A stretch of 64,000 bases of DNA from Acidobacteriota bacterium (lineage in GTDB: Bacteria; Acidobacteriota; UBA4820; DSQY01): NCBI GenBank assembly GCA_049968315.1, contig JBMFRA010000008.1, positions 662 to 64,661 of the forward strand, read 5' to 3'. The notes beneath the pieces are model-generated. The model had not been told where the DNA came from and did no database searches. It saw nothing but the letters and a program-made list of their open reading frames with translations. Positions 299 to 23,771 of the stretch are shown in pieces (positions within the stretch are counted from its first letter, which is position 1; every line of letters begins with the position of its first letter). The position numbers were made by a program, and so were the translations under genes.

Positions 299-1096
299 TC
301 ACGCCTCTTCGTTTTCGCTCACGCTGGCCTCCAGCCGGCGGATGGCGAGGCACGCGAGGCCCACGAAGAGCACCCCGTAGAAGACGAGGAAGAGCAGAGC
401 GGCGGTCTTGCTCTCGGTGGAGGCGAGGAGCTGCTGGATGAGCCCCTGGGGCCCGGCCCCGTGGGGAAGCAGGGTGTGCAGGTGGAAGAGGAGGGTGAAG
501 CGCTTGAGGAAGCCGGGGATGTAGCCCACCAGGTTTTCCCAGCCGAAGCCGATGAGCAGTCCGGCGAAGAGGGGCTTCTTGAGGAGCAGGCCCAGGAGGA
601 CGAAGAGGGCCCCGTAGGCCAGGACCCCCAGCAGGAGGACGCCGAGGTCCAGGAGGAGGAAGGGGAACTCCCGGAGGAGGGCCGCGGCGCCGCCCTCCGA
701 GACCCCCAGAAGAAAGGCCCCCGCCGCCGACGCCCCGTTCAGGATCCAGAGAAAGGCCGCCGTCGCGGCGAAGCGCGTGAGGAGGAGCTTGGCGCGGGGG
801 ATGGGCCTTCCCAGGAGGTACGGGAGGGTCCCCCCCTCCCGGTCGTCGGCCAGGAGCCCCACCCCGAAGACCAGCGTGGAGAGGGGAAGGAGGAAGCCGA
901 AGAGGTACACCAGCACCACCGAGGCGTAGAGGGTGACGCCCCCCAGGGGGACGGGAACCCCCTGGAGGACCAGCAGGCGCAGGAGGAGGGTCACGGCCCA
1001 GGGGAAGGCCGCCAGCAGGGCGAAGAGGAGCCCCCGGACCGAAAGGGCCGAACGGCGGAGGGTGTGGCGGAGGAGGGCCCGGGTGGCGGCGTCCAT
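299..1096 (-). CDS. ABC-2 type transporter permease (multi-pass membrane protein)
   Basis: Hydrophobic 265-aa product with about six predicted TM segments. It lies 2 nt downstream of an ABC ATPase gene, as in ABC-2 exporter operons. Confidence 0.7.
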   Translation of the reverse strand: MDAATRALLRHTLRRSALSVRGLLFALLAAFPWAVTLLLRLLVLQGVPVPLGGVTLYASVVLVYLFGFLLPLSTLVFGVGLLADDREGGTLPYLLGRPIPRAKLLLTRFAATAAFLWILNGASAAGAFLLGVSEGGAAALLREFPFLLLDLGVLLLGVLAYGALFVLLGLLLKKPLFAGLLIGFGWENLVGYIPGFLKRFTLLFHLHTLLPHGAGPQGLIQQLLASTESKTAALLFLVFYGVLFVGLACLAIRRLEASVSENEEA

Positions 1097-1097
1097 C

Positions 1098-2012
1098 TCA
1101 GGCCACCAGGTAGGCGAAGACCGCCGAGAGGTTGTCGTCCAGGGGGTTGAGGATCTCCAGTCCCATCTCCCGCTCCGAGAGGAGGATCTTCAGGCGCTCC
1201 CGGAAGTCGGCGGCGTCCGAGACCTCCACGGTGAGGTTCCTCCCGTCTCCTCCGAAGGAGACCGAGGCCACCGACGGCCAGGCGATGAGGGCCGCCGCCA
1301 GGGCCCGGGCATCCCGGGAGCGGACGAAGACCTTGAGGGGCCTGGAGGCGATGGCCTTCCGAACCTGCGGGACCTCCCCCGAGGCCAAGACCCGGCCGTA
1401 GTGGAGGAGCAGGATGCGGCTGGTCATGGCCTCCACCTCGTGGAGCAGGTGGGAGGAGACCAGGACGCACCGGCCCTCCCGCCCCCACCGCTGGATGGTG
1501 GCGACGGCCTGGGCCCGGCTCGGGGGGTCCATCCCGTTGAGGGGCTCGTCCAACAGGAGGATCTCCGGGTCGTGGACCAGCGCCTGGGCCATCTTGACCT
1601 TCTGCCGCATCCCCTTGCTCATGGCGGCGATCTTCCGGGACCGCTCCTCCCCCAGGGAGACCTCGTCGCAGGCCCGTTCGGCGCGCTTCAGGGCCTCCCC
1701 CCGGGGAAAGCCCGAGAGGCCGGCCAGGAAGGCCACGAACTCCACCCCCGCCATCTCCTCCCAGAAGCGGTCCGCCGCGGGGCAATTCCCGATCCGGCGG
1801 AGGGCCCGGGGGTTGCCGAAGACCGGCCGGCCGTCCAGGGTCACCGACCCGGCGGTGGGGCGGAGGAGGCCCGCCAGGAGGTTCAGCAGGGTGCTCTTCC
1901 CCGCCCCGTTGACCCCCAGGAGTCCCGTGACGCCGGGTTCCAGGACCAGGGAGACCCGGTTGACCCCCACCACGAGGCCGTACCAGCGGGAGGCGTTCTC
2001 CGCTCGGATCAC
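1098..2012 (-). CDS. ABC transporter ATP-binding protein
   Basis: Walker A GVNGAGKST, ABC signature MSKGMRQK and Walker B LLLDEPLNGMDP. The start overlaps the upstream permease stop. Confidence 0.88.
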   Translation of the reverse strand: MIRAENASRWYGLVVGVNRVSLVLEPGVTGLLGVNGAGKSTLLNLLAGLLRPTAGSVTLDGRPVFGNPRALRRIGNCPAADRFWEEMAGVEFVAFLAGLSGFPRGEALKRAERACDEVSLGEERSRKIAAMSKGMRQKVKMAQALVHDPEILLLDEPLNGMDPPSRAQAVATIQRWGREGRCVLVSSHLLHEVEAMTSRILLLHYGRVLASGEVPQVRKAIASRPLKVFVRSRDARALAAALIAWPSVASVSFGGDGRNLTVEVSDAADFRERLKILLSEREMGLEILNPLDDNLSAVFAYLVA

Positions 2013-2890
2013 CGCAGCACCCCCTTTCCGCGGAAGCGGACCGCCAGGACCAGGAGGCTCGCCGCCGCCAGGGCCGGGAAGAAGAGGAGGGGTGCGCCCG
2101 GGGGCAGGACCGGCCCGCCCCGGCCGGCGATCTCGGCCCCCAGGCAGACCACCGCCAGGGTCTTCAGCTCCGTGAGGATGGAGGGGTACCAGACCACGGG
2201 CAGGCGGGTGACGGCGTAGAGGACCCCCGACGCGGCGGGGCCGAGGAAGACGATGCCGAAGTAGGTGAGGCCCGTGAGCCGTGGGTTCTTAGAGAGGGAG
2301 GAGAGGGCGAGGAGAAAGAGGACCAGGGGGCCGCACCCCAGGAGGGCGAAGAGGAAGGTGCCCCAGAGGACCCGCCCGTGGGCGAAGAGCCAGCCCAGAT
2401 CCCCCGTGAGCCCAACCTGGAAGAGACAGAGCAGGAGGACCGGAACGACGGAGAAGAGGAGGAGGAAGAGCCCCAGCGCGGCGCCCTTCGCCCAGAGGTA
2501 CGCCGGGGCCGAGAGGGCCCGGCCCAGGAAGACGCCGAGGGTCCCGTCCTTCCGGTCCCGGGCGACGAGTCCCGAGCCCACCCAGATGGTGACGAGGGTC
2601 AGGAGGAAGAGGTTGTAGCCGTTGCCCAGCAGGGTGGACACCAGTGCCTCGTCCACCTCAGGAAGTTCCGCCACGAAGGCCTTGACGCTGGGCGAATCCC
2701 CCAGCTGGGTGTGGAAGAAGGTGAGAAGGATCCCCCAGATCCAGGGCAGGAAGGCCAGGCCCAGGAGAAGGAGGAAGCGGCGTTTGCGGAGGTACGGCAG
2801 GACCTCCTCCCGGAAGAGGGGAATCCACCGCCGGGAGAGGGAAATCCGCTCTCCGCCGTACCCCTGGTACCCCTGATCAAAGACCGGCAC
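2009..2890 (-). CDS. ABC-2 type transporter permease
   Basis: 293-aa polytopic membrane protein sandwiched between two ABC ATPase genes with 4 to 14 nt overlaps. Confidence 0.7.
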   Translation of the reverse strand: MPVFDQGYQGYGGERISLSRRWIPLFREEVLPYLRKRRFLLLLGLAFLPWIWGILLTFFHTQLGDSPSVKAFVAELPEVDEALVSTLLGNGYNLFLLTLVTIWVGSGLVARDRKDGTLGVFLGRALSAPAYLWAKGAALGLFLLLFSVVPVLLLCLFQVGLTGDLGWLFAHGRVLWGTFLFALLGCGPLVLFLLALSSLSKNPRLTGLTYFGIVFLGPAASGVLYAVTRLPVVWYPSILTELKTLAVVCLGAEIAGRGGPVLPPGAPLLFFPALAAASLLVLAVRFRGKGVLR

Positions 2891-3818
2891 GGTGCTCCTC
2901 CCCGTTCTTCTCCAGGACGTCGAGGAAGACCCGCTCCAGGGAGGTGGCCTCCCGGACGAGCCGGGTGATGCCGCCCTCCACCCGCCGGCCCAGGGCGAAG
3001 ACCGCCTGCAGGGTCTCCCCGGGGGGAAGGACCACCCGGAAGAGGCCGCGCCGTCCTTCCTCCACGGTGTACCCGGCCTCCCGGAGGGCCCCCACGAAGG
3101 CGGCCCCGTCGCCCTCCCACTGGACCAGAAAGTGCTGGGCCTCGGCCCGGGTCCAGTCCTCCACGGAGGCGTCCCTCAGGAGTTGGCCTCGGTGGAGGAT
3201 GAGGACCCGCGAGCATACCGCCTCCACGTCCTTCAGGATGTGGGTGCACAGGAGGAGGCTCTTTCCCGCCTCGGCGAGGTCCTTGAGGAGGGCCAGCATC
3301 TCCTCCCGGCCCACCGGGTCCATGCCGGAGGTGGGCTCGTCCAGCAGGAGGAGGTCGGGGTCGTGGACCAGCGCCCCGGCCAGCTTCAGCCGCTGCTGCA
3401 TACCGGTGGAGTAGGTCTCCACGTTCCGGTACCGGATCTCCCCCAGGCCCACGAACTGGAGCACCTCGTGGGCCCGCTCCACCGCCGCGTTCCGCCGAAG
3501 GCCCGAGATCTCCCCCAGGAGGGCCACCCAGGCGACGCCGCTGAGGCCCGGACGGACCCCTTCCCGCTCGGGAACGTACCCCACCCGGTCGCGGAGGGCC
3601 GCCCCAGCCCCCTGGAGGGAGCCCCCCGCCCGGAGGGTCACCGAACCGCCAGCCGGCGGCACGAGGCCCAGTACGGCCCGGATCAGGGTGGACTTGCCCG
3701 CTCCGTTGGGGCCCAAGAGCCCCACCGCACCGCCGTCCAGTGCGAAGGTGACCCCCCGGAGGGCCTCCCGCTTTCCGTACCGGACGCGTAGATCCTGGAC
3801 CTCCAACATCCCGCCCAT
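2877..3818 (-). CDS. ABC transporter ATP-binding protein
   Basis: Walker A GPNGAGKST, signature YSTGMQQR and Walker B LLLDEPTSGMDP. Confidence 0.88.
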   Translation of the reverse strand: MGGMLEVQDLRVRYGKREALRGVTFALDGGAVGLLGPNGAGKSTLIRAVLGLVPPAGGSVTLRAGGSLQGAGAALRDRVGYVPEREGVRPGLSGVAWVALLGEISGLRRNAAVERAHEVLQFVGLGEIRYRNVETYSTGMQQRLKLAGALVHDPDLLLLDEPTSGMDPVGREEMLALLKDLAEAGKSLLLCTHILKDVEAVCSRVLILHRGQLLRDASVEDWTRAEAQHFLVQWEGDGAAFVGALREAGYTVEEGRRGLFRVVLPPGETLQAVFALGRRVEGGITRLVREATSLERVFLDVLEKNGEEHRAGL

Positions 3819-3827
3819 GCCCCTTCC

Positions 3828-5387
3828 TTACGGGGGAGCCGTCCCCGAGGTTTCAGGGGAAGGGGGAGGACTCCGCCGAAGCTTGCGGTAGGCCTTCCGA
3901 AAGCGCCCCAAACGCTCCCCAAGGTCCGCCCGGGCGGCGGCCGCCGACTGCCAGAACCCCTGGAGGAGCGCGCCGGCGGCCAGGAGCTCCCCCTCCGGCG
4001 CCCTCCCCGCCTCCACGGCCCTGCGAAGCCGGACGGCGGCCACCACCGCGTCCTGGTGGGCGCCGAGGGCCTCCTGGAGGTCCACCGCCGCGGCGATGAG
4101 GTCCTCCGCCTCCTGGGGAAGGACCTCTCGAAAGAACTCGGCGGCGTACCGGGCCCGCTTGAAGAGAATGCGCAGGCGGTGGAGGGCTTCGGGGGCGGGG
4201 TCGGGTCCCAGGGCCTCCGCCGCCGCCAGGGCCCGTTTCCCCGTTCGGCGGACCAGCCGGCGGGCGGCCTCCGAGGTCCTCTCCGCCGCCGCCCCCCGCG
4301 GCCTGGAGGGCGGGGGGGAGAGGACCAGCCGGCGGATTCGCTGGAGCAGCCGGTGAAAGCGGCGGCTGGAGAGGCCCTCCCTCAAGGCTTCCAGCGCCCC
4401 GGCCCGCTCCCCCGCCACCACCGCCCGCAGGGTATCGGGCCCCGGGAGCCCGGGGGGGAGCCTTGCCGCCTGCCGGTCCCAGGCCGCAAGGAAGACGTCC
4501 AGGTCCCGCACCTCCCCCAGGAGGCCCGCCGCCCACCGCAGCTCGGCCCTAAGGGACTCGGACCGCCGCGGCCCCAGGGCGGGCCCCAGTAGGCGCAGGA
4601 GGGTGCGGGCCCGCCGGGCGGCCACCCGCGCGTCGTGGACGAACTCGGGGTGAAGGTCCCCCAGGGCCCAGGGGACGTTGGCCTCCAGGCGGGAGAGCTG
4701 GCGTCCCAGGAGCCGCCTTCCGGCGGCGGAGAGGGGCTCCTCCGGCCGGAGGGGGCTCTCCGCCCGCGCCTCCCGGGAGGGATCCCCGGGGCCTTGCCCC
4801 CGCCGCAGCTGGGAAGCGAGGTCCCCCTCCGCCGGCTTGAGGCCGGCGCGGTCCCGGAGCAGGACCTCCAGATGGCCGAGGCTCGCCGCTCCTTCCGCGG
4901 AAGCCGCCGCCACCTGGAGCAGCGACGGAACCCCGCCACCCTCCCGGGGCGCGGGGGCCTGGACCTCCGCCCGAAGGGGCCTTCCCGTGGGGGAGCGGAG
5001 GGTGAAGGAGCGGATCCGGAGGTGCGCCGCCGCCAGGGGGACGAGGGGTTTCGCCCCCAGGAGCCCCCCCCGGCCCGCCGGGACCTCCCAGGAGGCGGGG
5101 TCCAGCACGGGGCCAAAGGGGGCCTTCCCCATCCCCCGGGCCAGATCCTCCTCCCGGCCCGAGGGGTGGACGAGGACGAGGCGCCAGGCCTCCCGCTCCT
5201 CCCACAGGAGCAGGCGCAGGCCTTGCCGGCCCAGCCGGCCGTCGGCGGTGTCCCAGAAGACCGCTCGCCCCGAGACCGACCCCGAGGGCGTGAGGCGGTA
5301 CCCCGCGGCGGCGAGGTGCCTCCGGGCCCGCTTCCACCCGGCCCCGCCGACTTCGAAGCGGAGGGGCGGCGGCTCAGGGGTCGTCAT
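3828..5387 (-). CDS. CYTH-domain plus CHAD-domain protein (inorganic triphosphatase / polyphosphate-granule associated, YgiF-like architecture)
   Basis: The N-terminal about 200 aa resemble the CYTH triphosphate tunnel fold (EVGGAGWK start). The C-terminal half is helical with His/Arg-rich motifs (HDARVAARRARTLLRLL, LHRLRILFKRARYAAEFF) typical of CHAD. Confidence 0.65.
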   Translation of the reverse strand: MTTPEPPPLRFEVGGAGWKRARRHLAAAGYRLTPSGSVSGRAVFWDTADGRLGRQGLRLLLWEEREAWRLVLVHPSGREEDLARGMGKAPFGPVLDPASWEVPAGRGGLLGAKPLVPLAAAHLRIRSFTLRSPTGRPLRAEVQAPAPREGGGVPSLLQVAAASAEGAASLGHLEVLLRDRAGLKPAEGDLASQLRRGQGPGDPSREARAESPLRPEEPLSAAGRRLLGRQLSRLEANVPWALGDLHPEFVHDARVAARRARTLLRLLGPALGPRRSESLRAELRWAAGLLGEVRDLDVFLAAWDRQAARLPPGLPGPDTLRAVVAGERAGALEALREGLSSRRFHRLLQRIRRLVLSPPPSRPRGAAAERTSEAARRLVRRTGKRALAAAEALGPDPAPEALHRLRILFKRARYAAEFFREVLPQEAEDLIAAAVDLQEALGAHQDAVVAAVRLRRAVEAGRAPEGELLAAGALLQGFWQSAAAARADLGERLGRFRKAYRKLRRSPPPSPETSGTAPP

Positions 5388-6108
5388 CGGAGGCTTTCCG
5401 GCCCTCGGCGAAGGCCTCGACCCCCCGGGCCCCCGCCCGCCGTTCCCGGAGGTCCCGCACCACCCGCTCCACGGGGTAGGTGAAGCGGACGATCTGCGCC
5501 CGGGCGCGGCCTCCCTGGAATTGGGCCACGGCGAAGGCTCCCCGGGGGTCGCCGTCCACCGGCTTGCCCACCGACCCGCAGTTCACCACCAGGACCCCCC
5601 CCACGCGGCGGGTGAAGGGGAGGTGGGAGTGGCCGCAGACGAGGACGTCCGGGCGCGCGCCGCCGAGGAACGCCTCCAGGGCCGCCGCCGTGAGGCTCGG
5701 GTAGAGGTAGTCGGTGTCCTTCCGCGGGCTCCCGTGGACCACCAGGACCCGATGCCCCTGGAGGTCCAACTCCAGGCGCTCGGGAAGGCCCTCGAGAAAG
5801 CGCCGCTCCTCCTCCCCGAGCTGGAGGGCTGTCCAGGCCAGGGGGCCGAGGTTCCTCTTCGGAAGAAGCTTTCGGAGTTTCCGGGGGCTCTCGGCCAGGA
5901 GGCCGAGGACCTTCCGCTCCACGTTCCCCCGGATGCAGAGGACGCCCCGCTCCTTCAGGAGCCTCAGCACCTCCACGGGGTGGGGGCCGAAGCCGACCAG
6001 GTCCCCGGCGCAGACCACCCGTTCCGCCCCCCGCCGCCTGGCGGCCTCCAGGGCCCGCCACAGGGCGGGGAAGTTGGCGTGGACGTCGGAGAGGAAGAGG
6101 ACCTTCAC
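5374..6108 (-). CDS. Calcineurin-like metallophosphoesterase (YfcE/MJ0936 family)
   Basis: Motifs LSDVHAN, GDLVGFGP, GNVE and GHSH. ATGA-type start/stop overlap with the upstream gene. Confidence 0.8.
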   Translation of the reverse strand: MKVLFLSDVHANFPALWRALEAARRRGAERVVCAGDLVGFGPHPVEVLRLLKERGVLCIRGNVERKVLGLLAESPRKLRKLLPKRNLGPLAWTALQLGEEERRFLEGLPERLELDLQGHRVLVVHGSPRKDTDYLYPSLTAAALEAFLGGARPDVLVCGHSHLPFTRRVGGVLVVNCGSVGKPVDGDPRGAFAVAQFQGGRARAQIVRFTYPVERVVRDLRERRAGARGVEAFAEGRKASDDDP

Positions 6109-6473
6109 GGCAGCAGGACCTCCTCCAGCGCCTCCAAGAAGGCCTCCAGCCGGGCGAGGTCCTTGACCCGCCCCTTGGAAGGCTTCACCTTGAGGGCCGC
6201 GGCGGCCCGCCGGAGGCGCCTCAGCCGCTCCGCCGGGGGAAGGACGGGGGGCTCGGGGAGCCCTTCTCCGGTGAGGGCCTGGAAGAGGGCCGCGGCCCGT
6301 CCCTCCAGGCGGGCGGAGACCGCTTCCCCCACCTCCCGCACGAGGCCCCGGGCCCGCTCCACCTCCCGGGCCAGGGCCAGGGCCTCCTCCCGCTTCCCAG
6401 GCCGCGCCTTGGGTTTCTTGCCCGGGAGCCCCTTCCCGGTCTCCCGCTTCACCGGGTCGGTTCGTTCGGCCAT
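6105..6473 (-). CDS. Hypothetical protein (122 aa, Lys/Arg-rich N-terminus, helical)
   Basis: ORF packed between the Tmk-like gene (4-nt gap) and the metallophosphoesterase (4-nt overlap). No recognizable domain; coding status supported only by operon packing. Confidence 0.45.
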   Translation of the reverse strand: MAERTDPVKRETGKGLPGKKPKARPGKREEALALAREVERARGLVREVGEAVSARLEGRAAALFQALTGEGLPEPPVLPPAERLRRLRRAAAALKVKPSKGRVKDLARLEAFLEALEEVLLP

Positions 6474-6477
6474 GGCG

Positions 6478-7176
6478 TCACCCCCGTCCGTCGGCCAGCA
6501 CCCGCCGCACCCCCTCCACCAGGTCCCGGTGGATGGCGGGGGCCGTGCGGTTTCCGTTCACCACCGTAAAGCCGTAGGGGCCGGCCATCCGCTGGAACTC
6601 CCGGCGGATCCGGCGCTGGTAGGCGAGAAAGCTCTGGAACCAGTCCCTCCCCAGGCCCAGGTCCATTCCCGATTCCCAGTAGTCCAGTTGGTCCCGGGAC
6701 TCGAAGGTGCGCTCGATGAGGGTGGTCATGGAGACGGAGAGGAAGAAGACCACGTCGGGCACGAGGGCCATGCCGTAGAGGGACCGCAGCCACTCGGCGT
6801 CGGCCCCCCGGACCAGGTCCCGCACCATCAGGGTGTAGATGTACCGGTCCGCCAGCACCACGAAGCCCGCCCGGAGGGAGGGGCAGATGATGTTTTCCAG
6901 CTGGTCGTAGAAGTCGGTGGCGTAGAAGAGGCTCATGGTCCTGGGGCTGAGGACGTTGCCCTGCTTGGCCCGCTCCAGCTCGGGACCCACCAGGGGGGAT
7001 CGCTTGAGGCCCACCTGGGCCACGGCGTACCCCTGCTCCTCCAGCCACTGGGAGAGGAGGGAGACGTGGGTGGACCGGCCGGAGGAGTCGGGGCCCTCCA
7101 CCACCACCAGCCATCCGGACAGCTTGGAGAGGTCCACCCCCGCCGGGGGGTGGGTGTAGCACCGCTTGCCGCTCAT
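6478..7176 (-). CDS. Thymidylate kinase (dTMP kinase)-family P-loop kinase, paralog 2, with degenerate Walker A (GPDSSGRST)
   Basis: Start MSGKRCY at 7176 with ATGA overlap to the upstream paralog stop. Motifs VVVEGPDSSGRST, YATDFYD, LADRYIYT and shared YWESGMDLGL. Confidence 0.6.
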   Translation of the reverse strand: MSGKRCYTHPPAGVDLSKLSGWLVVVEGPDSSGRSTHVSLLSQWLEEQGYAVAQVGLKRSPLVGPELERAKQGNVLSPRTMSLFYATDFYDQLENIICPSLRAGFVVLADRYIYTLMVRDLVRGADAEWLRSLYGMALVPDVVFFLSVSMTTLIERTFESRDQLDYWESGMDLGLGRDWFQSFLAYQRRIRREFQRMAGPYGFTVVNGNRTAPAIHRDLVEGVRRVLADGRG

Positions 7177-7859
7177 CGTGCGTACCTCTTGTGGAAGAAG
7201 GCCAGGTCCACCTTCTCCGCCAGGATCTTCCGGATCCACTTCTGTTGGGCGTGGACGGGGAGGGTGGCGTCCACCTCCGTGAATCCGAACTCCGGCACCA
7301 TGGCGAGGTACTGTTCCAGGACCCGCCCCTGGAAGATCCGGAAGCTCTCCTGGGGGTCCGGGTGGAGGCCCAGGTCCATCCCCGCTTCGAAGTACTTGAG
7401 CTTGGGTCTCCCTTCCAGGATGCGCCCCAGGGCCGTCACCAGGGGCAGGCGGAAGAAGAAGACCACGTCCGGCGGAACGGCGAAGCTGTAGAGGCGGCGC
7501 AGCCAGCCGCCGTCGCAACCCCGCACCGCGTCCCGGGCGAAGGAGGTGTAGATGTACCGGTCGCAGAGGACCAGGTACCCCGCCCGCAGGAGGGGATGGA
7601 TCTGGCGCTCGTACCGGTCGGCGAAGTCGGTGGCGTGGATGAGGCTGAAGGTGGTGGGGGTGAGGAGCTGCCGCTTCTTGCCCTTCCGCGTGGCCTCCCG
7701 CACCAGGACCGAGGAGTTCCACTCGGAGAAGAAGACCCGGTACCCCCGGGCACGGAGCCACTGGTTCAGGAGGTGGATCTGGGTGGACTTTCCCGACCCG
7801 TCCAGCCCCTCCACGGCGATGAGCCGGCCGGGGTAGGCGTGCTCCGGTGTTCCGTTCAT
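7173..7859 (-). CDS. Thymidylate kinase (dTMP kinase)-family P-loop kinase, paralog 1 (canonical Walker A)
   Basis: Start MNGTPEH at 7859 overlapping the ppx stop (ATGA). Motifs IAVEGLDGSGKSTQ, HATDFADRY, LCDRYIYTS and YFEAGMDLGL. Confidence 0.65.
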   Translation of the reverse strand: MNGTPEHAYPGRLIAVEGLDGSGKSTQIHLLNQWLRARGYRVFFSEWNSSVLVREATRKGKKRQLLTPTTFSLIHATDFADRYERQIHPLLRAGYLVLCDRYIYTSFARDAVRGCDGGWLRRLYSFAVPPDVVFFFRLPLVTALGRILEGRPKLKYFEAGMDLGLHPDPQESFRIFQGRVLEQYLAMVPEFGFTEVDATLPVHAQQKWIRKILAEKVDLAFFHKRYAR

Positions 7860-9502
7860 GGGGCTCCCTCCACCACCGAAACCTCCACCGCCGTTCCGAA
7901 GGTCCGCCGGAAGAGGTCGGCCTTTCGCTTCATGGACCAGCCCTCCAGCAGGAGGTCGCCCTCCCCCTCTACCGCCAGGCGAACGTGCCCTTCCTGGAAG
8001 GAGACCTCCACCCGGTGGACCCGCTGGCGGTGCTCCCGGTCCAGGGCGTCGGCCAGCCGAAGGAGGGAAGCGAGGACCCGCACGGTGCGCCTCTCCCGGC
8101 GGTCCAGGAGGGCGAAGGACTCGTGCTGGGGTTTGGGGGGACTCCTCCGGTGGTACCGTGCCACGTTGGCCACCAGGAGGGTCTCCCGGGGCGAGAAACC
8201 GGCCAGCTCGCTGTTGGCGATGAGGTAGAGGCTGTGCTTGTGGTGCCGGTTGTAGCTCACGAAGGTGCCCACGTCGTGGAGAAGGGCCGCCGCCTGCAGG
8301 ACGGCCCGTTCCGGCGGCCCGAGCCGGTGGAGCTCCTTCGTCTGGTCGAAGAGGGAGAGGGCCAGGCGGGAGACGTGGCGGCCGTGGCTCTCGTCGAAGC
8401 CGTACTTCCGCCCCACGGGAAGGGCCGCCGCCTCCACCTCGGCCTCGCTCCGGCCCCCCCCGTCTCCTCCCCCCCAGGCTTCGGCCAGTTCCAGGACCAC
8501 CCCCTCCCGCAGGCCCACGAAGGGGACCCTTATCTCCCGGGCCCCCGCCAGGCGGGCCAGGCGAAGGTACACCAGCGCCGCGGGAAGGATGACGTCCGCC
8601 CGGTCCTCGCGGATGCCCAGGGTCTCGATCCGCTCCCGGTAACCCAGGGCCGCCAGCCGGCCCGTCAGGCGCTCCAGGACGCCGACCCCCAGCCTCGCCA
8701 CACCGCCCTTCTCCCGTGGGCAGAGGGCCAGGGCGGCCAGGGCTTCGGCGTTCCCCCCGGTGGCGATGCAGCCGAGGTTCATTCCCGAGAGGTCCCGGTG
8801 GAGGCGGAGGGTCCCCACGTACTCCGACAGGAGGCGCGGCAGGCGCCCGGCGTCGTCGGCGGCGGCGGCCAGCTCCTCCAGGAGGCGGACGGCCCCCATG
8901 GTATGTGACTCGCTCCAGAGGATCCCCGCCCGGTCGGCGAGGGCCACCTCCACGCTCCCCCCCCCCACGTCCACCAAGAGCCACCGCCGGGTTCCCAGGT
9001 CCATCCGGTGCTTCACCGCCCGGTAGACCAACCGTGCCTCCTCCGATCCGCCGATGGGTTCCAGCCGGATGCCGGCGCGCTCCCGGACCTCGGCGAGGAA
9101 GGCCTCCCCGTTCCGGCTTTCCCGCACCGCACTGGTGGCCACGGCGCGGTAGCGGGCGATGCCCAGGTCCTCCATCCGGCGCCGGTACTCCGAGAGGACC
9201 GCCACCGCCCTGGCGGCGGCCTGGCCATCGAGCTCCCCCCGGACGAAGACCCCGTGCCCCAGCCTCACGGGGCTTCGGCCCGCCTCCAGGACGTCGCAGG
9301 TGCCGCCGGAGAGGAAGCGGGCGGCGAGGAACCGGATGGCGTTGGATCCCACGTCCAGGGCGGCGCACCGAAACTCTCCACCCCCCAAGCCCCCCGCCGG
9401 GGGTGCCTCCGCCGGGATTTTTCCGCCGCTGGCTTTCCGAAGCCTGGCCGCCAAGGATGCCTCCCCCGCCCTTCTGCCCGATCTTCGTTTCTTTTTCAAC
9501 AT
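7856..9502 (-). CDS. ppx: Exopolyphosphatase / guanosine pentaphosphate phosphohydrolase (Ppx/GppA N-terminal domain + HD domain)
   Basis: FRCAALDVGSNAIRF and LLVDVGGGSVEV (ASKHA-fold Ppx/GppA motifs). The C-terminal part has LLHDVG ... HHKHS (HD domain). The start chosen is MLKKKRR at 9502; an upstream in-frame Met at about 9577 is an alternative. Confidence 0.85.
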   Translation of the reverse strand: MLKKKRRSGRRAGEASLAARLRKASGGKIPAEAPPAGGLGGGEFRCAALDVGSNAIRFLAARFLSGGTCDVLEAGRSPVRLGHGVFVRGELDGQAAARAVAVLSEYRRRMEDLGIARYRAVATSAVRESRNGEAFLAEVRERAGIRLEPIGGSEEARLVYRAVKHRMDLGTRRWLLVDVGGGSVEVALADRAGILWSESHTMGAVRLLEELAAAADDAGRLPRLLSEYVGTLRLHRDLSGMNLGCIATGGNAEALAALALCPREKGGVARLGVGVLERLTGRLAALGYRERIETLGIREDRADVILPAALVYLRLARLAGAREIRVPFVGLREGVVLELAEAWGGGDGGGRSEAEVEAAALPVGRKYGFDESHGRHVSRLALSLFDQTKELHRLGPPERAVLQAAALLHDVGTFVSYNRHHKHSLYLIANSELAGFSPRETLLVANVARYHRRSPPKPQHESFALLDRRERRTVRVLASLLRLADALDREHRQRVHRVEVSFQEGHVRLAVEGEGDLLLEGWSMKRKADLFRRTFGTAVEVSVVEGAP

Positions 9503-9598
9503 AGCGGTTTTTCTCTTCCGAAGCAATCGGGGCTCCCCTTTCCACCCCTTTCCTTTCCCGGCGATCGGGCGCATACTGAACCGGATGTGAAGGAAGGG

Positions 9599-9632
9599 AT
9601 ATCCACAACCTGTGGAAATAACTGTGAATAAA
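9599..9632. promoter_or_regulatory. Three DnaA boxes immediately upstream of dnaA start (ATATCCACA; TGTGGAAAT = ATTTCCACA rc; TGTGAATAA = TTATTCACA rc)
   Basis: Direct match to the TTATCCACA consensus with 1 to 2 mismatches each, at 9599-9607, 9611-9619 and 9624-9632. The last box ends 2 nt before the dnaA ATG. Confidence 0.7.
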
Positions 9633-9634
9633 CC

Positions 9635-10975
9635 ATGAGCCACCGCCTGTGGGCCCAGATCCTGGAAAAGGTGAAATCGAGGGTACCGGAGAGCACCTAC
9701 GCCTCCTGGTTCAAGCCTCTCAAGCTCCTTCGTGTGGAGGAGTCCCAGGTGGTTCTCCTGACCCCCAACCCCCTCTTCCGGGAGTGGCTCGAGAGCCACT
9801 ACCGGGGGGTTTTGGAGGAGGCCGCCGCCGACGCCGGCCACCCTGGGCTGGCCATCTCCTTCGAGGACGGCCCCGGGGAGGAACTGGTCCTCCAGCCGGA
9901 GCCCGCCCCCAAGGCCTCCTCCCGGAAGGAGAAGGCCCCTCCCGCCTCCTCCCCTTCCGATCCCCTCTTCAACCCCCAGTACCGCTTCGACACCTTCGTG
10001 GTGGGCCCCTCCAACCGCTTCGCCTTCGCGGCCTGCCTGGCCGTGGCCCAGAATCCCTCCCGCTCCTACAATCCTCTCTACATTTACGGCGGCGTCGGTC
10101 TCGGAAAGACCCACCTCATGCAGTCCATCGGGGCGGAGATCAAGCGGAACAACCCCGATCTGAAGGTCTGCTACCTGTCCACCGAGCGGTTCATGAACGA
10201 GATGATCGCGTCCATCACCCACCGGAAGCAGCACGAGTTCCGGGAGCGCTACCGCCGGGCCGACGTGATCCTCCTCGACGACGTCCAGTTCCTTTCGGGC
10301 AAGGAGGGGACCCAGGAGGAACTCTTCCACACCTTCAACGCCCTCCACGAATCCCAGCGCCAGATCGTCCTCTCCTCTGACTGCCCTCCCCGGGATCTGC
10401 ACAGCATCGAGGAGCGCCTGCGCTCCCGCTTCGAGTGGGGCCTCATCGCCGACATCCAGCCCCCGGAGCTGGAGACCAAGGTGGCCATCCTGTACAAGAA
10501 GGCCGAGGCCTACCGGGTCGCCCTCCCGGAAGAGGTGGCCCTCTTCATCGCCGGGCGCATCAAGAGCAACATCCGGGAGCTGGAGGGTTGCCTCCTCCGG
10601 CTCATCGCCTTCTCCTCCTTCAAGGGCCTTCCCATCACCGTGGACCTGGCACGGGAGACCTTCGAGAGCCTCTTCAAGGAGGACGGCCGGGCCCCCACCA
10701 TCGAGTCCATCCAGCGCCACGTGGCGGCCTACTACAAGATGCGCCTCCAGGACCTCAAGGCCCGTACCAACAAGGCCAGCATCGTGCTGCCGCGCCAGGT
10801 GGCCATGTACCTCTGCAAGGAGCTGACCTCCTGCTCGCTGCCGGAGATCGGCCGGAAGTTCGGGGGCAAGCACCACACCACCGTCCTCCACGCCATCCGG
10901 AAGATCGACGAGCAAGCCAAGAAGGATCCCAACCTTCAACAGGCTATCCACAACCTAGTTCGTTCCATTCGCTGA
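9635..10975 (+). CDS. dnaA: Chromosomal replication initiator protein DnaA
   Basis: Full-length DnaA with AAA+ Walker [11 protein letters not shown], sensor motifs and a C-terminal DNA-binding domain (HTTVLHA). ATG at 9635. Confidence 0.97.
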
Positions 10976-10989
10976 GGAAAGGGACGTTC

Positions 10990-11140
10990 GGTGGAAAAGG
11001 TGCCTTGGAAAAACTGTGGAAAAGCCTGGGGGTGTTTCCAGGGGGGTCTTTTCCTCGCCCTCCACGGAGTTCTCCACAGTACTCCGGCGACCTGCAACTT
11101 CGGCCCGCCGGGACCTCCGGTACTTTTCCACAGATCCACA
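10990..11140. promoter_or_regulatory. DnaA-box cluster in dnaA-dnaN intergenic region (candidate oriC part)
   Basis: Boxes TGTGGAAAA (11016-11024, rc TTTTCCACA), TTCTCCACA (11070-11078), TTTTCCACA (11124-11132) and AGATCCACA (11132-11140), plus weaker GGTGGAAAA (10990-10998). A CTATCCACA also sits at 10944-10952 inside the dnaA 3' end. Confidence 0.6.
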
Positions 11141-11183
11141 GCCCCTACTACGGCTACTGCCTCTATCTAAGGGGAGAGATCCT

Positions 11184-12307
11184 ATGGAGACGAGAATCGA
11201 AGCCCGGAGCCTCCTTTCCGAACTGACGCTGGCCCAGGGGATCGTCGAGTCCAAGGCCACCATTCCCATCCTGGCCAACTTTCTGCTGAGAACCACAGAA
11301 AACGCCTTGGAGATCGCCGCCTCGGACCTGGAGGTGACCCTCCGCTGCCGCTGCCCCGCGGAGATCCTGGAGGAGGGCGGCGTCACCGTTTCGGCGAAGA
11401 AGTTCTCCTCCCTCGTCCGGGCCTTTGCGGGCCTGGAGGGGCGGCTCTCCGTCAAGACGACGGCCCAGGGAAGGCTCTTCCTCCAGCCGGAGGGGGGGCG
11501 CCAGGAGTACCACCTGCAGACCCTTCCGCAAGAAGACTTCCCCACCCTTCTCTCCCCCGACGGGGGCAAGAGCCTGGAGCTCCCCATGGAGGCCCTCAAG
11601 CGGTGCATCTCCGAAGCCCTGGTCTCGGTGGGGGTGGAGGAGAGCCGCTTCTCGGTCCGGGGGGGGCTCCTGCTCCTGGAGAGCGGGCGCCTGGCCCTGG
11701 TTTCCACCGACTCCCACCGCCTGACCTACACCGAGTGGCTGGGCCCCGTGGGGGTGGAGGAGCCCATGCGCCTTCTCGTGCCCCGGAAGACCCTGACGGA
11801 GTTCCTCAAACTGGATGGGGAGGAGAAGGTCCGGGTCTCCTTCCGGGACAGCACCATCTTCCTGGAAACGGGAAACCGCCTTCTCTACAGCCGCCTCATG
11901 GACACCACCTTCCCGGCCTGGGAAAAGGTGATCCCCCAGGGTTCGGACAAGCTGGCGGTGATGAACCGGGCGGAACTCCAGGAGCGCCTGCGGCGGGTTT
12001 CCAACGTGGCGGAGTCCAAGACCCGGGCCGTGATCCTCTCCTTCGACCCGGCGGGGAGCCTCGAGGTCCTGGCGCGGAATGCCGAGACGGGGGACGAGGG
12101 GAGGGAGTACCTCTCCTGCGAGCGGTACGAGGGCGAGGCGGTCCAGCTCCTCTTCAACGCCGACTACATTCTGGACTTCCTGGGGGCCTGCTCCGAGGAG
12201 AAGGTCCGGATGGCCATGAAGGACGGGGAACACCAGGCCCTGCTGCAGCCGGTGCGCCCCGAGGGGGCTCCCCAGCACCAGTACGTCATCATGCCGTTGA
12301 GGTTTGA

Positions 12308-12311
<4 letters not shown>
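11184..12311 (+). CDS. dnaN: DNA polymerase III beta sliding clamp
   Basis: Start METRIEAR at 11184 preceded by AGGGGAGAG; the listed ORF start at 11016 is an upstream extension. Three-domain beta-clamp sequence. Confidence 0.93.
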
Positions 12312-20807: not shown

Positions 20808-20986
20808 TGCAACTCCTTGAAAAAGATCTTCCCCGGCAACCCGCTCGCCGAAGGGAAGAACGCTACCACCGGCCGCGCCGGCCTGTCAACCGGCCGCGTT
20901 GACACCCCCCCTTCCCGGAGCCTAAGATGGCTCCTCCCGAGAGGGGTGCGGCCGGGGGCGGCCCCCCGATCTCCACCGCCGAGGGA

Positions 20987-21559
20987 ATGACGATGAAACG
21001 AAAGAAGATCTTCGACGGGGCGGGCATCCAGCGCTCCCTGGGGCGGCTGGCCCTGGAGATCGCCGAGCGCCTCCAGGGTTGCCAGGACGTGGTTCTCATC
21101 GGAATCCACCGGCGGGGGGTGCCCCTGGCCCGCCGCCTGGCGGCACTCCTCCAGAAGGCCGAGGGAATCTCCCTCCCCGTGGGCTCCCTGGACATCAACC
21201 TGTACCGGGACGACTTTTCCTCGGCGGGTACCGCCCCCGTGCTGCGGGGGACCCAGGTGGACTTCTCCCTGGAGGGCAAGACGGTGGTGCTGGTGGACGA
21301 CGTCCTCTTCACCGGCCGTACGGTCCGGGCGGCCCTGGACGCCCTGGTGGACCTGGGGCGGCCGGCGCGGGTCCAGCTGGCGGTCCTGGTGGACCGGGGA
21401 CACCGGGAACTGCCCATCCAGGCCGATTACGTGGGCCTCTCCCTCTCCACCCGGCGGGAGGACCACGTGGAACTCCGGCTCCAGGAAACGGACGGCGAGG
21501 ACGCCCTCTACCTCGAGGGGCCCGAGCCCAAGACCCCCCGGGGGCGCAAGTCCCGGTAG
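20987..21559 (+). CDS. pyrR: Bifunctional pyrimidine operon regulator / uracil phosphoribosyltransferase PyrR
   Basis: PRTase motif VVLVDDVLFTGRTVRAAL. Start set at MTMKRKK (20987) because the listed ORF start at 20927 falls inside a promoter -10, and a PyrR-box-like leader lies upstream. Confidence 0.88.
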   Translation: MTMKRKKIFDGAGIQRSLGRLALEIAERLQGCQDVVLIGIHRRGVPLARRLAALLQKAEGISLPVGSLDINLYRDDFSSAGTAPVLRGTQVDFSLEGKTVVLVDDVLFTGRTVRAALDALVDLGRPARVQLAVLVDRGHRELPIQADYVGLSLSTRREDHVELRLQETDGEDALYLEGPEPKTPRGRKSR

Positions 21560-21568
21560 GAGCGGGCC

Positions 21569-22510
21569 ATGGCCATGCACCACAAGGACCTCGTGGGGAT
21601 CGAGACCCTCTCCCCCGAGGAGATCACCCTGATCCTCGACACCGCCGAGAAGATGGCGGAGGTCTCCCGCCGCCCCCTGAAGAAGGTGCCGGCCCTCCGC
21701 GGAAAGCTGGTGGTCAACCTCTTCTTCGAGAACTCCACCCGGACCCGCTCCTCCTTCGAGATCGCCGAGAAGCGCTTGTCCGCCGATACGCTGAACTTCT
21801 CCGCCTCCGCCTCCTCCCTCTCCAAGGGGGAAAGCCTGGTGGACACCGTACTGAACCTGGAGCGGATGCAGCCCGACGCCTACGTGATGCGCCACTCCAG
21901 CCCCGGGGCCTGCCAGCTCATCCGCCCGTTCACCAAGGCGGTTCTCATCAACGCCGGCGACGGTGCCCACGAGCACCCCACCCAGGCGCTGCTGGACGCC
22001 CTGACCATCCGGCAGAAAAAGGGGGACTTCCGGGGCCTCAAGGTCCTCATCGCGGGGGACATCGCCCACTCCCGGGTGGTCCGTTCCAACGTCTTTCTTT
22101 TGAAGAAGATGGGCGCCGACGTGACCCTCTGCGGGCCGGCCACCCTCCTCCCCCCCCACTTGGAGAGCCTGGGGGTGAAGGTCACCACCGACTTCGACCG
22201 GGCCCTGGAGGGCCGGGACGTGGTGATGATGCTGCGGATCCAGTTGGAGCGCCAGAAGAAGGGCCTCTTTCCTTCGCTGCTCGAGTACTACAAGTACTAC
22301 GGCCTCACCGAGGAGCGGCTCCGGAAGGCCGACCGGGAGGTCATCGTCATGCACCCCGGTCCCATCAACCGCGGGGTGGAAATCGCCTCGGAGGTGGCCG
22401 ACGGCCCCTACTCGGTGATCCTGGACCAGGTGGAAAACGGCGTTTCGGTGCGCATGGCCATCCTGTACCTCCTTCTGGGCGGGGGCGACGATGAAGCGTC
22501 TCATTCTTAA
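21569..22510 (+). CDS. pyrB: Aspartate carbamoyltransferase catalytic subunit
   Basis: [11 protein letters not shown] carbamoyl-phosphate binding motif, HPTQALLD and HPGP motifs. Confidence 0.95.
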
Positions 22511-23771
22511 GAACGGCCGGGTGGTGGACCCCGCCGGGGGGGTGGACGAGACCCTGGACCTCCTCCTGGAGGAGGGCCGCATCGCCGGGGTGGACAAGAA
22601 GATCTCCCTCAAGGGGGTGGAGGTCTTCGACGCCTCGGGCCTCGTCGTGGCGCCGGGGTTCATCGACCTGCACGTGCACCTCCGGGAGCCGGGGTACGAG
22701 CGGAAGGAGACCATCGCCACGGGGCTCCGGGCGGCGCTGGCCGGGGGCTTCACCGGCGTCTGCTGCATGCCCAACACCGACCCGGTGAACGACTGCGCCT
22801 CCGTCACCCGCTATATCCTGGAGCGTGCCCGGTCGGTCAGCCCCGTGGCCGTCTATCCCATCGGGGCCGTGACCAAGGGCTCCAAGGGGGAGGAACTGGC
22901 CCCCCTCTACGAGCTGAAGGAGGCGGGAGTCCGGGCGATCTCCGACGACGGGCAGCCCGTCCGCCGGGCCTCCATCCTCCGCCGTGCCTTGGAGTATGGG
23001 GGGTCCCTGGGCCTCCGGGTCATCGACCACTGCGAGGACCCCGATCTGGCCGAGGGGGGGGTGATGCACGAAGGGGAGGTCTCCACCCGCCTGGGGCTCA
23101 AAGGCATCCCCGCCGAGGCCGAGTCCATCCCGGTGCTCAGGGACATCGCCCTGGCCGCCATGACGGGGTACCCCGTCCACATCGCCCACGTGAGCACCCG
23201 CCTCGCCGTGGAGGCCATCCGGGCGGCCAAGAAGAAGCGGATCCCCGTCACGGCGGAAGCCACCCCCCACCACTTCACCCTGACCCACGAGGCGGTGGCC
23301 TCCTTCGACACCCGGTACAAGATGAACCCGCCCCTGAGAACCCCCGAGGACGTGGACGCCGTCATCGAGGGCCTGGCCGACGGGACCCTGGACGCCATTG
23401 CCACCGACCACGCCCCCCACACCTACGAGGAGAAGCTCCAGGAGTTCGACCGGGCCCCCAACGGGATCATCGGCCTGCAGACGGCGGTGCCCCTCGCGCT
23501 GGACCGGCTCGTGCGGACGGACCGGATCTCCCTCAAGCGGATGGTGGACGCCTTCTCCACGGCCCCCGCGCGGATCCTGGGCCTCGAGGGCAAGGGCCGC
23601 CTCGTCCCCGGCTACGACGCCGACCTGACCCTTCTCAACCTCAGGAAGGAATTCGTCTTCGAGGAGAAGGACGTCCTCAGCCTCAGCCGCAACAGCCCCT
23701 TCTTCGGCATGCGCCTCAAGGGGGCGGTGGCGGGGGTCTTCATCGCCGGGACCTTCTACGGCGCCCCGTGA
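22491..23771 (+). CDS. pyrC: Dihydroorotase (amidohydrolase superfamily, ATCase-associated type)
   Basis: [10 protein letters not shown] metal-binding motif and the MPNTDP and ATDHAPH motifs. The start overlaps the pyrB end. Confidence 0.9.

Follow-up and report, generated by a model that had tools for sequence, protein, structure and literature searches.

A predicted polyphosphate-metabolism operon built around a PPK3-like kinase pair in an Acidobacteriota genome

Background

PPK3, a heteromeric polyphosphate kinase, was described in Sulfolobus acidocaldarius by Hofmann et al. (J Biol Chem 2026, PMC12995831; preprint bioRxiv 2024, 10.1101/2024.08.28.610084). It is encoded in the operon saci_2017-2021, whose gene order is sixA-ppx-cPPK3-rPPK3-CHAD (PMC12995831). 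The catalytic subunit, Saci_2019 (cPPK3), has polyphosphate kinase (PPK) activity and no thymidylate (dTMP) kinase activity, while Saci_2020 (rPPK3) is inactive alone and activates Saci_2019 about 10-fold in an alpha2-beta2 heterotetramer; this inactivity has been ascribed to loss of the arginine of the 'DRX' motif (PMC12995831). Among the proteins assayed in the same study, Saci_0893 has dTMP kinase activity and Saci_2019 and Saci_2020 have none, PPK3 does not conserve the residues that bind dTMP, and the S. acidocaldarius enzyme (SaPPK3) strongly favours the reaction of polyphosphate (polyP) and ADP to ATP (PMC12995831). We report here on a stretch of 64,000 nucleotides from an Acidobacteriota metagenome-assembled genome (MAG), hereafter 'the window', and on the minus-strand operon found at its positions 299-9502, which contains two adjacent genes resembling thymidylate kinase genes, tmk1 and tmk2. 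We consider it very likely that this is a polyP-metabolism operon built around PPK3, in which Tmk1 corresponds to cPPK3 and Tmk2 to rPPK3.

Bacterial counterparts of PPK3 have been anticipated. The PPK3 clade consists mainly of bacterial dTMP kinase paralogues, and those encoded in operons with PPX, CHAD, SixA and other such genes were predicted to be PPKs; PPK3 gene neighbourhoods also resemble those of PPK1 (PMC12995831). In the published profile, a genome with PPK3 has a canonical dTMP kinase gene at another site and usually no PPK1 or PPK2 (PMC12995831). Acidobacteriota are listed among the predicted bacterial holders in the preprint (10.1101/2024.08.28.610084).

Three other systems are useful for comparison. 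The class II, two-domain PPK2 proteins, such as PPK2C of Pseudomonas aeruginosa, are like PPK3 polyP-using P-loop kinases that combine an active module with an inactive, paralogous one in support, and they too favour polyP-driven nucleotide phosphorylation; unlike PPK3, they belong to the PF03976 family, have their two modules fused in one chain, and have the ADP and polyP sites swapped, according to PMC12995831. The 'PPK3' of Ruegeria pomeroyi in the biocatalysis literature is a PPK2-family protein, separate from the heteromeric PPK3. Canonical thymidylate kinase (TIGR00041) has the same fold, P-loop and DRY motif as the window pair, and PF02223 matches both proteins, but its dTMP-binding residues are replaced in the pair, similarity is limited to E~1e-13, and its context is nucleotide metabolism rather than polyP. 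Finally, the classical ppk1-ppx operon follows the same logic, a polyP kinase being co-transcribed with an exopolyphosphatase, except that PPK1 is unrelated to PPK3 and that PPK3 is heteromeric.

Results

The tandem kinases most likely correspond to the two PPK3 subunits

When compared with the Protein Data Bank (PDB), Tmk1 matched entries 2plr/5h70 (STK_15430, a cPPK3 homologue) at 47% identity with E=8.8e-59; among true thymidylate kinases, the best match reached only 2.5e-13. Tmk2 matched the same entries with E=4.7e-38, and aligned with Saci_2020 at 32% identity (BLASTP, 2e-34). Profiles were then built for the first and second genes of the bacterial tandem, from 83 and 76 loci, respectively, and used to score the archaeal subunits. 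On the Tmk1 profile, Saci_2019 scored 251 bits and Saci_2020 86 bits; on the Tmk2 profile the scores were 179 and 131 bits, respectively.

The residues tell the same two subunits apart. Tmk1 has an intact P-loop (GLDGSGKST), DRY, EWNSS, H75, R82, R146 and K155, of which the P-loop, DRY, R146 and K155 are invariant. In a joint alignment, K24, E46-W47-N48-S49, H75, R82 and K155 were invariant in bacterial and archaeal c subunits and replaced in the r subunits, and four of the replacements (G46, Y75, Q82 and D155, in Tmk1 numbering) were common to Saci_2020 and the bacterial r subunit. Because of the reciprocal profile scores and the shared replacements, Tmk1 is, judged from sequence, orthologous to cPPK3 and Tmk2 to rPPK3; the grouping of the c subunit with Saci_2019 and STK_15430 rests on similarity and profile scores. 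No third Tmk-like open reading frame (ORF) was present in the 64-kb window.

The bacterial r subunits nevertheless differ from Saci_2020 in how the active site is altered. The P-loop of Tmk2 is GPDSSGRST, with Lys replaced by Arg, and its DRY is kept (LADRYIYT). After filtering, 76 bacterial r copies remained; each of them has the P-loop Arg (GSGRST or SSGRST) and, like Tmk2, the Asp-Arg of DRY, nearly always in the form DRY itself. Saci_2020 shows the opposite pattern: it keeps the P-loop Lys and has DGY. The difference points to an alternative route of inactivation for the r subunit in bacteria rather than to a lack of orthology.

As regards the dTMP site, the Thermus thymidylate kinase segment 'LLFSADR...AYQ' aligned with 'LIHATDF...ARD' in Tmk1, so that the canonical dTMP-site residues are gone, in agreement with the published description of PPK3 (PMC12995831). 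Both proteins are still recognized by the Pfam Thymidylate_kin model PF02223 (1.8e-20 for Tmk1, 2.3e-16 for Tmk2).

The locus of S. acidocaldarius was retrieved for comparison, and the order ppx-c-r-...-CHAD of the window is that of saci_2018-2021. The two operons share the core order of ppx, catalytic Tmk-like, regulatory Tmk-like and CHAD genes, the short overlaps at ppx/c and c/r, and the subunit-specific residues: P-loop, DRY, EWNSS, H75, R82 and K155 in c, and the four replacements in r. They differ in that the window comes from a bacterium, has no SixA, encodes a long-form Ppx with domain III (548 amino acids against 411), and carries a small basic protein gene and a YfcE-type metallophosphoesterase (MPE) gene inserted before CHAD. 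The CHAD protein of the window has 519 amino acids and a degenerate CYTH domain, while the Sulfolobus one is CHAD only, with about 206 amino acids. In addition, the window has an ABC-2 cassette (ABC, ATP-binding cassette) downstream and dnaA upstream.

An earlier note on this DNA, made from the sequence alone, had described the pair as duplicated nucleoside-monophosphate kinases; one catalytic and one regulatory subunit are predicted instead. Its guess of a polyP-driven nucleotide phosphorylation agrees with the characterized homologue SaPPK3, which converts polyP and ADP to ATP (PMC12995831). Its view that no named pathway was involved has been overtaken: the operon is of an already described type, since the PPK3 pathway has been named (bioRxiv 2024, JBC 2026) and bacterial operons with PPX and CHAD had been predicted. 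The system is thus already published in kind and is not a new pathway. Absent from the published main text are the Lys to Arg change with DRY signature of the bacterial r subunit, the family of the small protein, for which there is no Pfam model, and the breadth of distribution in uncultured bacteria.

Distribution and genomic context of the pair

The Tmk1 family is very large and strongly conserved: all 8000 scored candidates had E<=1e-5, and identity was 71 to 100% among the 120 matches listed. An exact look-up of Tmk1 gave no gene record, and a 100%-identical NCBI protein exists. Relatives were sought in one genome per GTDB species, and at least 539 stretches of these species-representative genomes (of 600 matched) were confirmed to encode them. 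Most of the best 80 loci came from Verrucomicrobiota. Acidobacteriota, Sumerlaeota, Goldbacteria, Planctomycetota, Desulfobacterota, Myxococcota and Gemmatimonadota are represented as well, some of these phyla, such as Planctomycetota and Sumerlaeota, by singletons.

The tandem arrangement is conserved. It was found at 78 of 83 related loci, and the remaining five are cut off by a contig end next to the c gene. On three long contigs the order Tmk-Tmk-small ORF-MPE-CHAD was shared, with or without the Ppx and ABC genes. The earlier note had asked for such a neighbourhood comparison, and the order ppx-tmk-tmk-hyp-MPE-CHAD(-ABC), where hyp is the small protein gene, does recur in metagenomic and MAG contigs that are independent of one another. 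On this ground, chance adjacency was rejected for the cluster as a whole.

The polyP context is conserved as well. Within about 7 to 9 kb of the pair, at the 83 loci, a Ppx gene was found 37 times, a ROK-family kinase gene 27 times, the small protein gene 19 times, a CHAD gene 17 times, an MPE gene eight times and a two-domain PPK2 gene five times; at least one of Ppx, ROK kinase, CHAD and PPK2 was encoded at 46 loci.

In Verrucomicrobiota and other phyla (loci between L007 and L083; for example, L078:11689-12675 and L012:12482-13477), a ROK-family sugar kinase gene comes after the PPK3 pair, often with a short Ppx of about 330 amino acids. The ROK family includes polyP glucokinases, and the position of this kinase behind the pair thus suggests a polyP-to-glucose-6-phosphate branch linked to PPK3. 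A two-domain PPK2 gene (PF03976, 6e-128) adjoins the pair in L005, L006, L013, L019 and L079 (for example, L079:11383-12888). PPK3 is therefore not always a replacement for PPK2, contrary to what the published profile might suggest.

Other products of the operon

Ppx, in its long form, matched PF02541 (5.5e-40; the ASKHA domains of Ppx/GppA) and PF21447 (2.8e-31; domain III, HD-like). Its gene occupies the position of saci_2018 in the Sulfolobus operon.

The small protein consists of a disordered N-terminal tail rich in Lys, Arg and Pro, and a three-helix body (AlphaFold2 (AF2) model; confidence score pLDDT of 90). Residues 97-105 form a nearly invariant K-P-x-K-G-R-x-K-D stretch (family motif KVKPxKGRxKDL). 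The protein had no Pfam or NCBIfam match, a Pfam search with 47 family members returned noise only, and Foldseek found no fold match to the model with E<1. Stand-alone representatives are few, 66 among 1.84 billion, and where the small protein neighbours the pair it comes directly after the r subunit (19 of 83 loci). Its position and its charge suggest that it may be an accessory factor that binds polyP or is associated with PPK3.

The MPE is of the YfcE/MJ0936 type. It matched PF12850 (7.8e-28) and TIGR00040 (60.3 bits, above the cut-off of 56.25), its best PDB match was 3rqz (1.7e-19), and inspection of the translation showed the metal-ligand motifs D8-x-H10, G35-D36, G61-N62, VHGS and GHSH, with GNVE in place of GNHD/E. 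In seven of the eight PPK3 loci where it occurs, CHAD is also present. We infer from this context that it may act on polyP or on short phosphoanhydride products. A 2026 paper on a new polyP-degrading enzyme makes no mention of a metallophosphoesterase.

In the CHAD protein, the CHAD domain, helical and of a polyP-binding type, covers residues 226-455 and beyond (PF05235, 5.4e-53, 180.7 bits against a cut-off of 25.6), and H251, R254, R258, R259, R261, H403, R406, K410 and R413 were invariant in 36 sequences. The AF2 model, computed from 36 homologues, had a pLDDT of 89.8, and mostly above 80 in the N-terminal domain. Foldseek matched it to the CHAD-polyP complex 6qva (9e-12, template-modelling (TM) score 0.83) and to the full-length CYTH-CHAD protein YgiF, 5a60 (1.6e-9 over 503 columns).

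The N-terminal domain (about residues 1-200) adopts, in this model, the eight-stranded CYTH tunnel fold of the PF01928 family; its Foldseek matches were CYTH/TTM proteins (ThTPase, CyaB, SaTTM and YgiF; E of 1e-4 to 1e-3, TM score 0.5 to 0.6). Sequence searches did not recover the domain. Pfam CYTH gave no match at E<=10 on the N-terminal 223 residues, and seven of eight orthologues from related loci were likewise negative. An hhalign comparison of acidobacterial N-domains with the one Pfam-CYTH-positive orthologue gave E=0.025 and a probability of 1.9%, and the only CYTH matches of the N-domain profile among PDB sequences were non-significant (2gfg, E=0.36; 3n0y, E=2). In the alignment, ExExK and the charged tunnel residues are lost in the window clade and kept in the CYTH-positive relatives: in the window, ExExK reads RFEVGG, 'W.lK.P' reads RLVLVHP, 'FREvEvE' reads LLQVAA, and 'pKl' is lost. 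Because of these losses, the modelled domain is probably a degenerate, non-catalytic CYTH fold. The two-domain architecture is that of E. coli YgiF (5a60), but the window protein differs from YgiF in having neither ExExK nor the other charged tunnel residues; it has no Pfam CYTH match either, and is probably no triphosphatase.

PPK3 activity and subunit stoichiometry in the window are predicted by analogy with the Sulfolobus enzyme. Tmk1 and Tmk2 would form an alpha2-beta2 complex, with Tmk2 as the non-catalytic regulatory or scaffolding subunit. The complex would move the terminal phosphate reversibly between ATP and polyP, running mainly in the direction of polyP and ADP to ATP at low energy charge and synthesizing polyP only at a high ATP/ADP ratio. 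Ppx would strip terminal phosphates from polyP, the CHAD domain would anchor its protein to polyP, and the N-terminal CYTH-like barrel, its catalytic residues lost, would probably serve as a binding or structural module.

Operon layout and origin region

The window has about 70% G+C, and raw ORF lists are full of shadow frames; genes were therefore called by a filter on G+C at third and second codon positions (GC3/GC2), together with inspection of ORFs and start codons. The resulting features are reported in Table 1.

Table 1. Genes of the polyP operon and features at its dnaA-proximal end (window positions)
Feature	Position	Strand	Remarks
permease2	299-1096	-	ABC-2 permease; second pair
ATPase2	1098-2012	-	ABC_tran; second pair
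permease1	2009-2890	-	ABC-2 permease; first pair
ATPase1	2877-3818	-	ABC_tran; first pair of double ABC-2 cassette
CHAD protein	3828-5387	-	519 amino acids; probably degenerate CYTH-like N-domain, CHAD
MPE	5374-6108	-	244 amino acids; YfcE/MJ0936-type metallophosphoesterase
hyp (small protein)	6105-6473	-	122 amino acids; conserved
tmk2	6478-7176	-	232 amino acids; rPPK3-like, predicted regulatory subunit
tmk1	7173-7859	-	228 amino acids; cPPK3-like, predicted catalytic subunit
ppx	7856-9502	-	548 amino acids; first gene of operon
ppx-dnaA spacer	9503-9634		inverted DnaA-box pair: 9599-9607 ATATCCACA; 9623-9631 TTATTCACA on minus strand
dnaA	9635-10975	+	divergent from ppx, 132-bp spacer

The operon comprises ten co-directional genes, transcribed away from dnaA. 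The ppx/tmk1 and tmk1/tmk2 junctions are ATGA overlaps of 4 nucleotides each, tmk2 and hyp are separated by 4 nucleotides, and hyp/MPE is a GTGA overlap, also of 4. Overlaps of 14 nucleotides are found at MPE/CHAD and ATPase1/permease1, CHAD and ATPase1 are 9 nucleotides apart, permease1/ATPase2 is a GTGA overlap, and 1 nucleotide separates ATPase2 from permease2. A scan for promoters and terminators returned no promoter, and every terminator-like match lay within coding sequence.

The earlier note had counted nine genes where ten are present, the small protein included. The tight packing that it described holds at all junctions, which are ATGA or GTGA overlaps, 14-nucleotide overlaps or gaps of 1 to 9 nucleotides, and so does the divergence from dnaA. 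Most of its domain assignments were borne out by Pfam and NCBIfam (Ppx-GppA with domain III, Thymidylate_kin twice, Metallophos_2/YfcE, CHAD, and two copies each of ABC_tran and ABC2_membrane); that of CYTH holds for the fold only, the catalytic motifs being lost.

The same note placed the operon near the replication origin and had it start there. The 64 kb contain seven near-consensus DnaA boxes, against 1.7 expected, and six of the seven flank dnaA (9599-9631 and 10944-11132), in keeping with proximity to the origin. Four of them, at 10944-11132, form the larger cluster, in the 3' end of dnaA and the dnaA-dnaN spacer. In the longest dnaN ORF (11016-12311) the Pfam beta-clamp domain begins 56 codons in; the true start is probably near 11180, and the spacer, which holds DnaA boxes, would therefore be larger, about 200 bp. 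Given this larger cluster, oriC probably lies between dnaA and dnaN: the operon starts beside the boxes of the dnaA promoter, and not demonstrably at the origin itself. A comparable inverted box pair is present upstream of dnaA in L003, L004 and L092. Adjacency to dnaA is common to the close relatives L003, L004, L085, L086 and L092, and does not extend to L001 and L002.

On the other side, dnaA is followed by dnaN, a recF-like gene, gyrB and gyrA. Downstream of gyrA, at 20927-23771, lies a pyrimidine biosynthesis run (a PyrR/Upp-like phosphoribosyltransferase, aspartate carbamoyltransferase and dihydroorotase genes), and then a RadA/Sms-like gene and uvrA, all of them housekeeping genes of the usual kind with no relation to the polyP operon.

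Alternative explanations

The tandem genes might be genuine, duplicated dTMP kinase genes that merely lie beside polyP genes. This would fit the Thymidylate_kin matches, the score of Tmk1 on TIGR00041 (82.9 bits, just short of the cut-off of 83.25), the source annotations, since the named records for the c subunit (database entries P0001-P0120) read 'dTMP kinase', and an earlier publication in which STK_15430 was reported to be a thymidylate kinase of an unusual kind (Biswas 2017, cited in PMC12995831). However, the thymine-stacking Phe and the Arg of 'LLFSADR', as well as 'AYQ', are replaced; Tmk2 has no P-loop lysine; and the pairing and its polyP context are conserved across phyla, between which the c subunits are 65 to 83% identical. 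These points, together with the lack of dTMP kinase activity in the homologues Saci_2019 and Saci_2020, as opposed to Saci_0893 (PMC12995831), led us to reject this explanation, which we hold to be very improbable. Slightly less probable still is a GppA-type pppGpp phosphohydrolase as first gene, with a cluster devoted to the stringent response and alarmone metabolism. Pfam cannot separate Ppx from GppA, and the GppA model NF008260 even scores a little above the PPX model NF008108 (137 and 131 bits, both far under their cut-offs), but the best NCBIfam model is TIGR03706, 'exo_poly_only', at 194 bits; as this too is below its cut-off (307), none of the equivalog models is satisfied and sequence alone does not separate PPX from GppA. 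The context does favour one of them: CHAD, PPK3, PPK2 and ROK neighbours point to polyP, and the syntenic Sulfolobus gene is a PPX.

A different question is whether all ten genes form one unit coupling polyP turnover to export, be it efflux of metal-phosphate complexes that Ppx releases, or use of the two ABC-2 pumps to export polyP or nucleotides. The cassette matched ABC_tran and ABC2_membrane_2/4, its nearest NCBIfam models being DrrA and GldA, all below cut-off. Co-transcription with the polyP genes is probable here, given the short CHAD/ATPase1 gap and the tight packing throughout, and every close permease1 relative in which the CHAD side could be scored (L085, L086, L090, L092, L095, L099 and L002-L004) has CHAD, or the polyP cluster in full, immediately upstream. 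In L002, an Imm10 immunity-protein gene lies between CHAD and the cassette (L002:14415-14804), the order being otherwise unbroken, and a gene of the 23S_rRNA_IVP family between ATPase2 and permease2 (L002:17943-18332); the linkage thus survives gene insertions. PolyP-dependent metal detoxification by phosphate release is, moreover, an established idea (see PMC10892726 for context). On the other hand, the linkage does not extend beyond a single acidobacterial subclade. Most members of it, though not all, also have dnaA linked, so that shared ancestry rather than function may be the cause. The cassette is missing in L001, which is 76% identical in Tmk1, and in the other PPK3 loci that carry CHAD and reach far enough downstream (L009, L013, L015, L016 and L055), while homologous four-gene cassettes (26 to 31% identity) occur in unrelated contexts, beside genes for an S9 peptidase, a flavoprotein, a methyltransferase and HflX. 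Pfam and NCBIfam found no substrate-binding or polyP-related domain in the ABC proteins, and a paper on CHAD and copper reports no metal or ABC genes near CHAD. An obligatory exporter link was rejected, the cassette not being constant at PPK3/CHAD loci, and the export unit as a whole appears unlikely. The cassette is a case of clade-level synteny outside the conserved polyP core, and nothing ties the pumps to polyP; the 'dedicated exporter' of the earlier note, absent from PPK3/CHAD loci beyond the subclade, is accordingly given up, and the detoxification role that it proposed found no support.

Several points do weigh against a polyP operon centred on PPK3. PPK3 activity of the window pair is predicted by homology, at 47% identity for c and 32% for r. 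The hallmark of rPPK3, loss of the DRX arginine, is seen neither in Tmk2 nor in the 76 bacterial r copies; because these keep DRY and have the P-loop Lys to Arg change instead, the bacterial second subunit could retain some nucleotide-dependent function. Five related loci carry PPK2 next to the pair, and the roles proposed for the small protein and the MPE are drawn from context only. Bacterial PPK3 might instead be a distinct, larger module, with a nucleotide-sensing or partly active r subunit, and with the small protein as a third component (polyP-binding primer, scaffold or regulator) that works with the MPE and a catalytically dead CYTH-CHAD protein; in this clade, the DnaA-box promoter region shared with dnaA could tie polyP energy buffering to replication initiation. 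We put this forward tentatively, as a possibility that is rather doubtful, and retain a PPK3 operon of the described kind as the best account of the locus.

Conclusions

The identification of the pair corrects a widespread mis-annotation. The c-subunit family is prone to systematic errors of this kind, since the named records say 'dTMP kinase' and the TIGR00041 score nearly reaches its cut-off, and metabolic reconstructions may count c as a thymidylate kinase. Two leads go beyond the archaeal work: in the r subunit of bacteria, the invariant change of Lys to Arg, and the family of small proteins that has no Pfam model. Far from being confined to 'a few bacteria', PPK3-type polyP kinases occur commonly among uncultured bacteria of soil and freshwater. 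This bears on the supply of polyP-driven ATP-regeneration enzymes, on work in phosphorus cycling and enhanced biological phosphorus removal (EBPR) in which ppk1 and ppk2 alone serve as the measure of polyP potential, and on phosphate storage and energy buffering in the bacteria that carry the genes.

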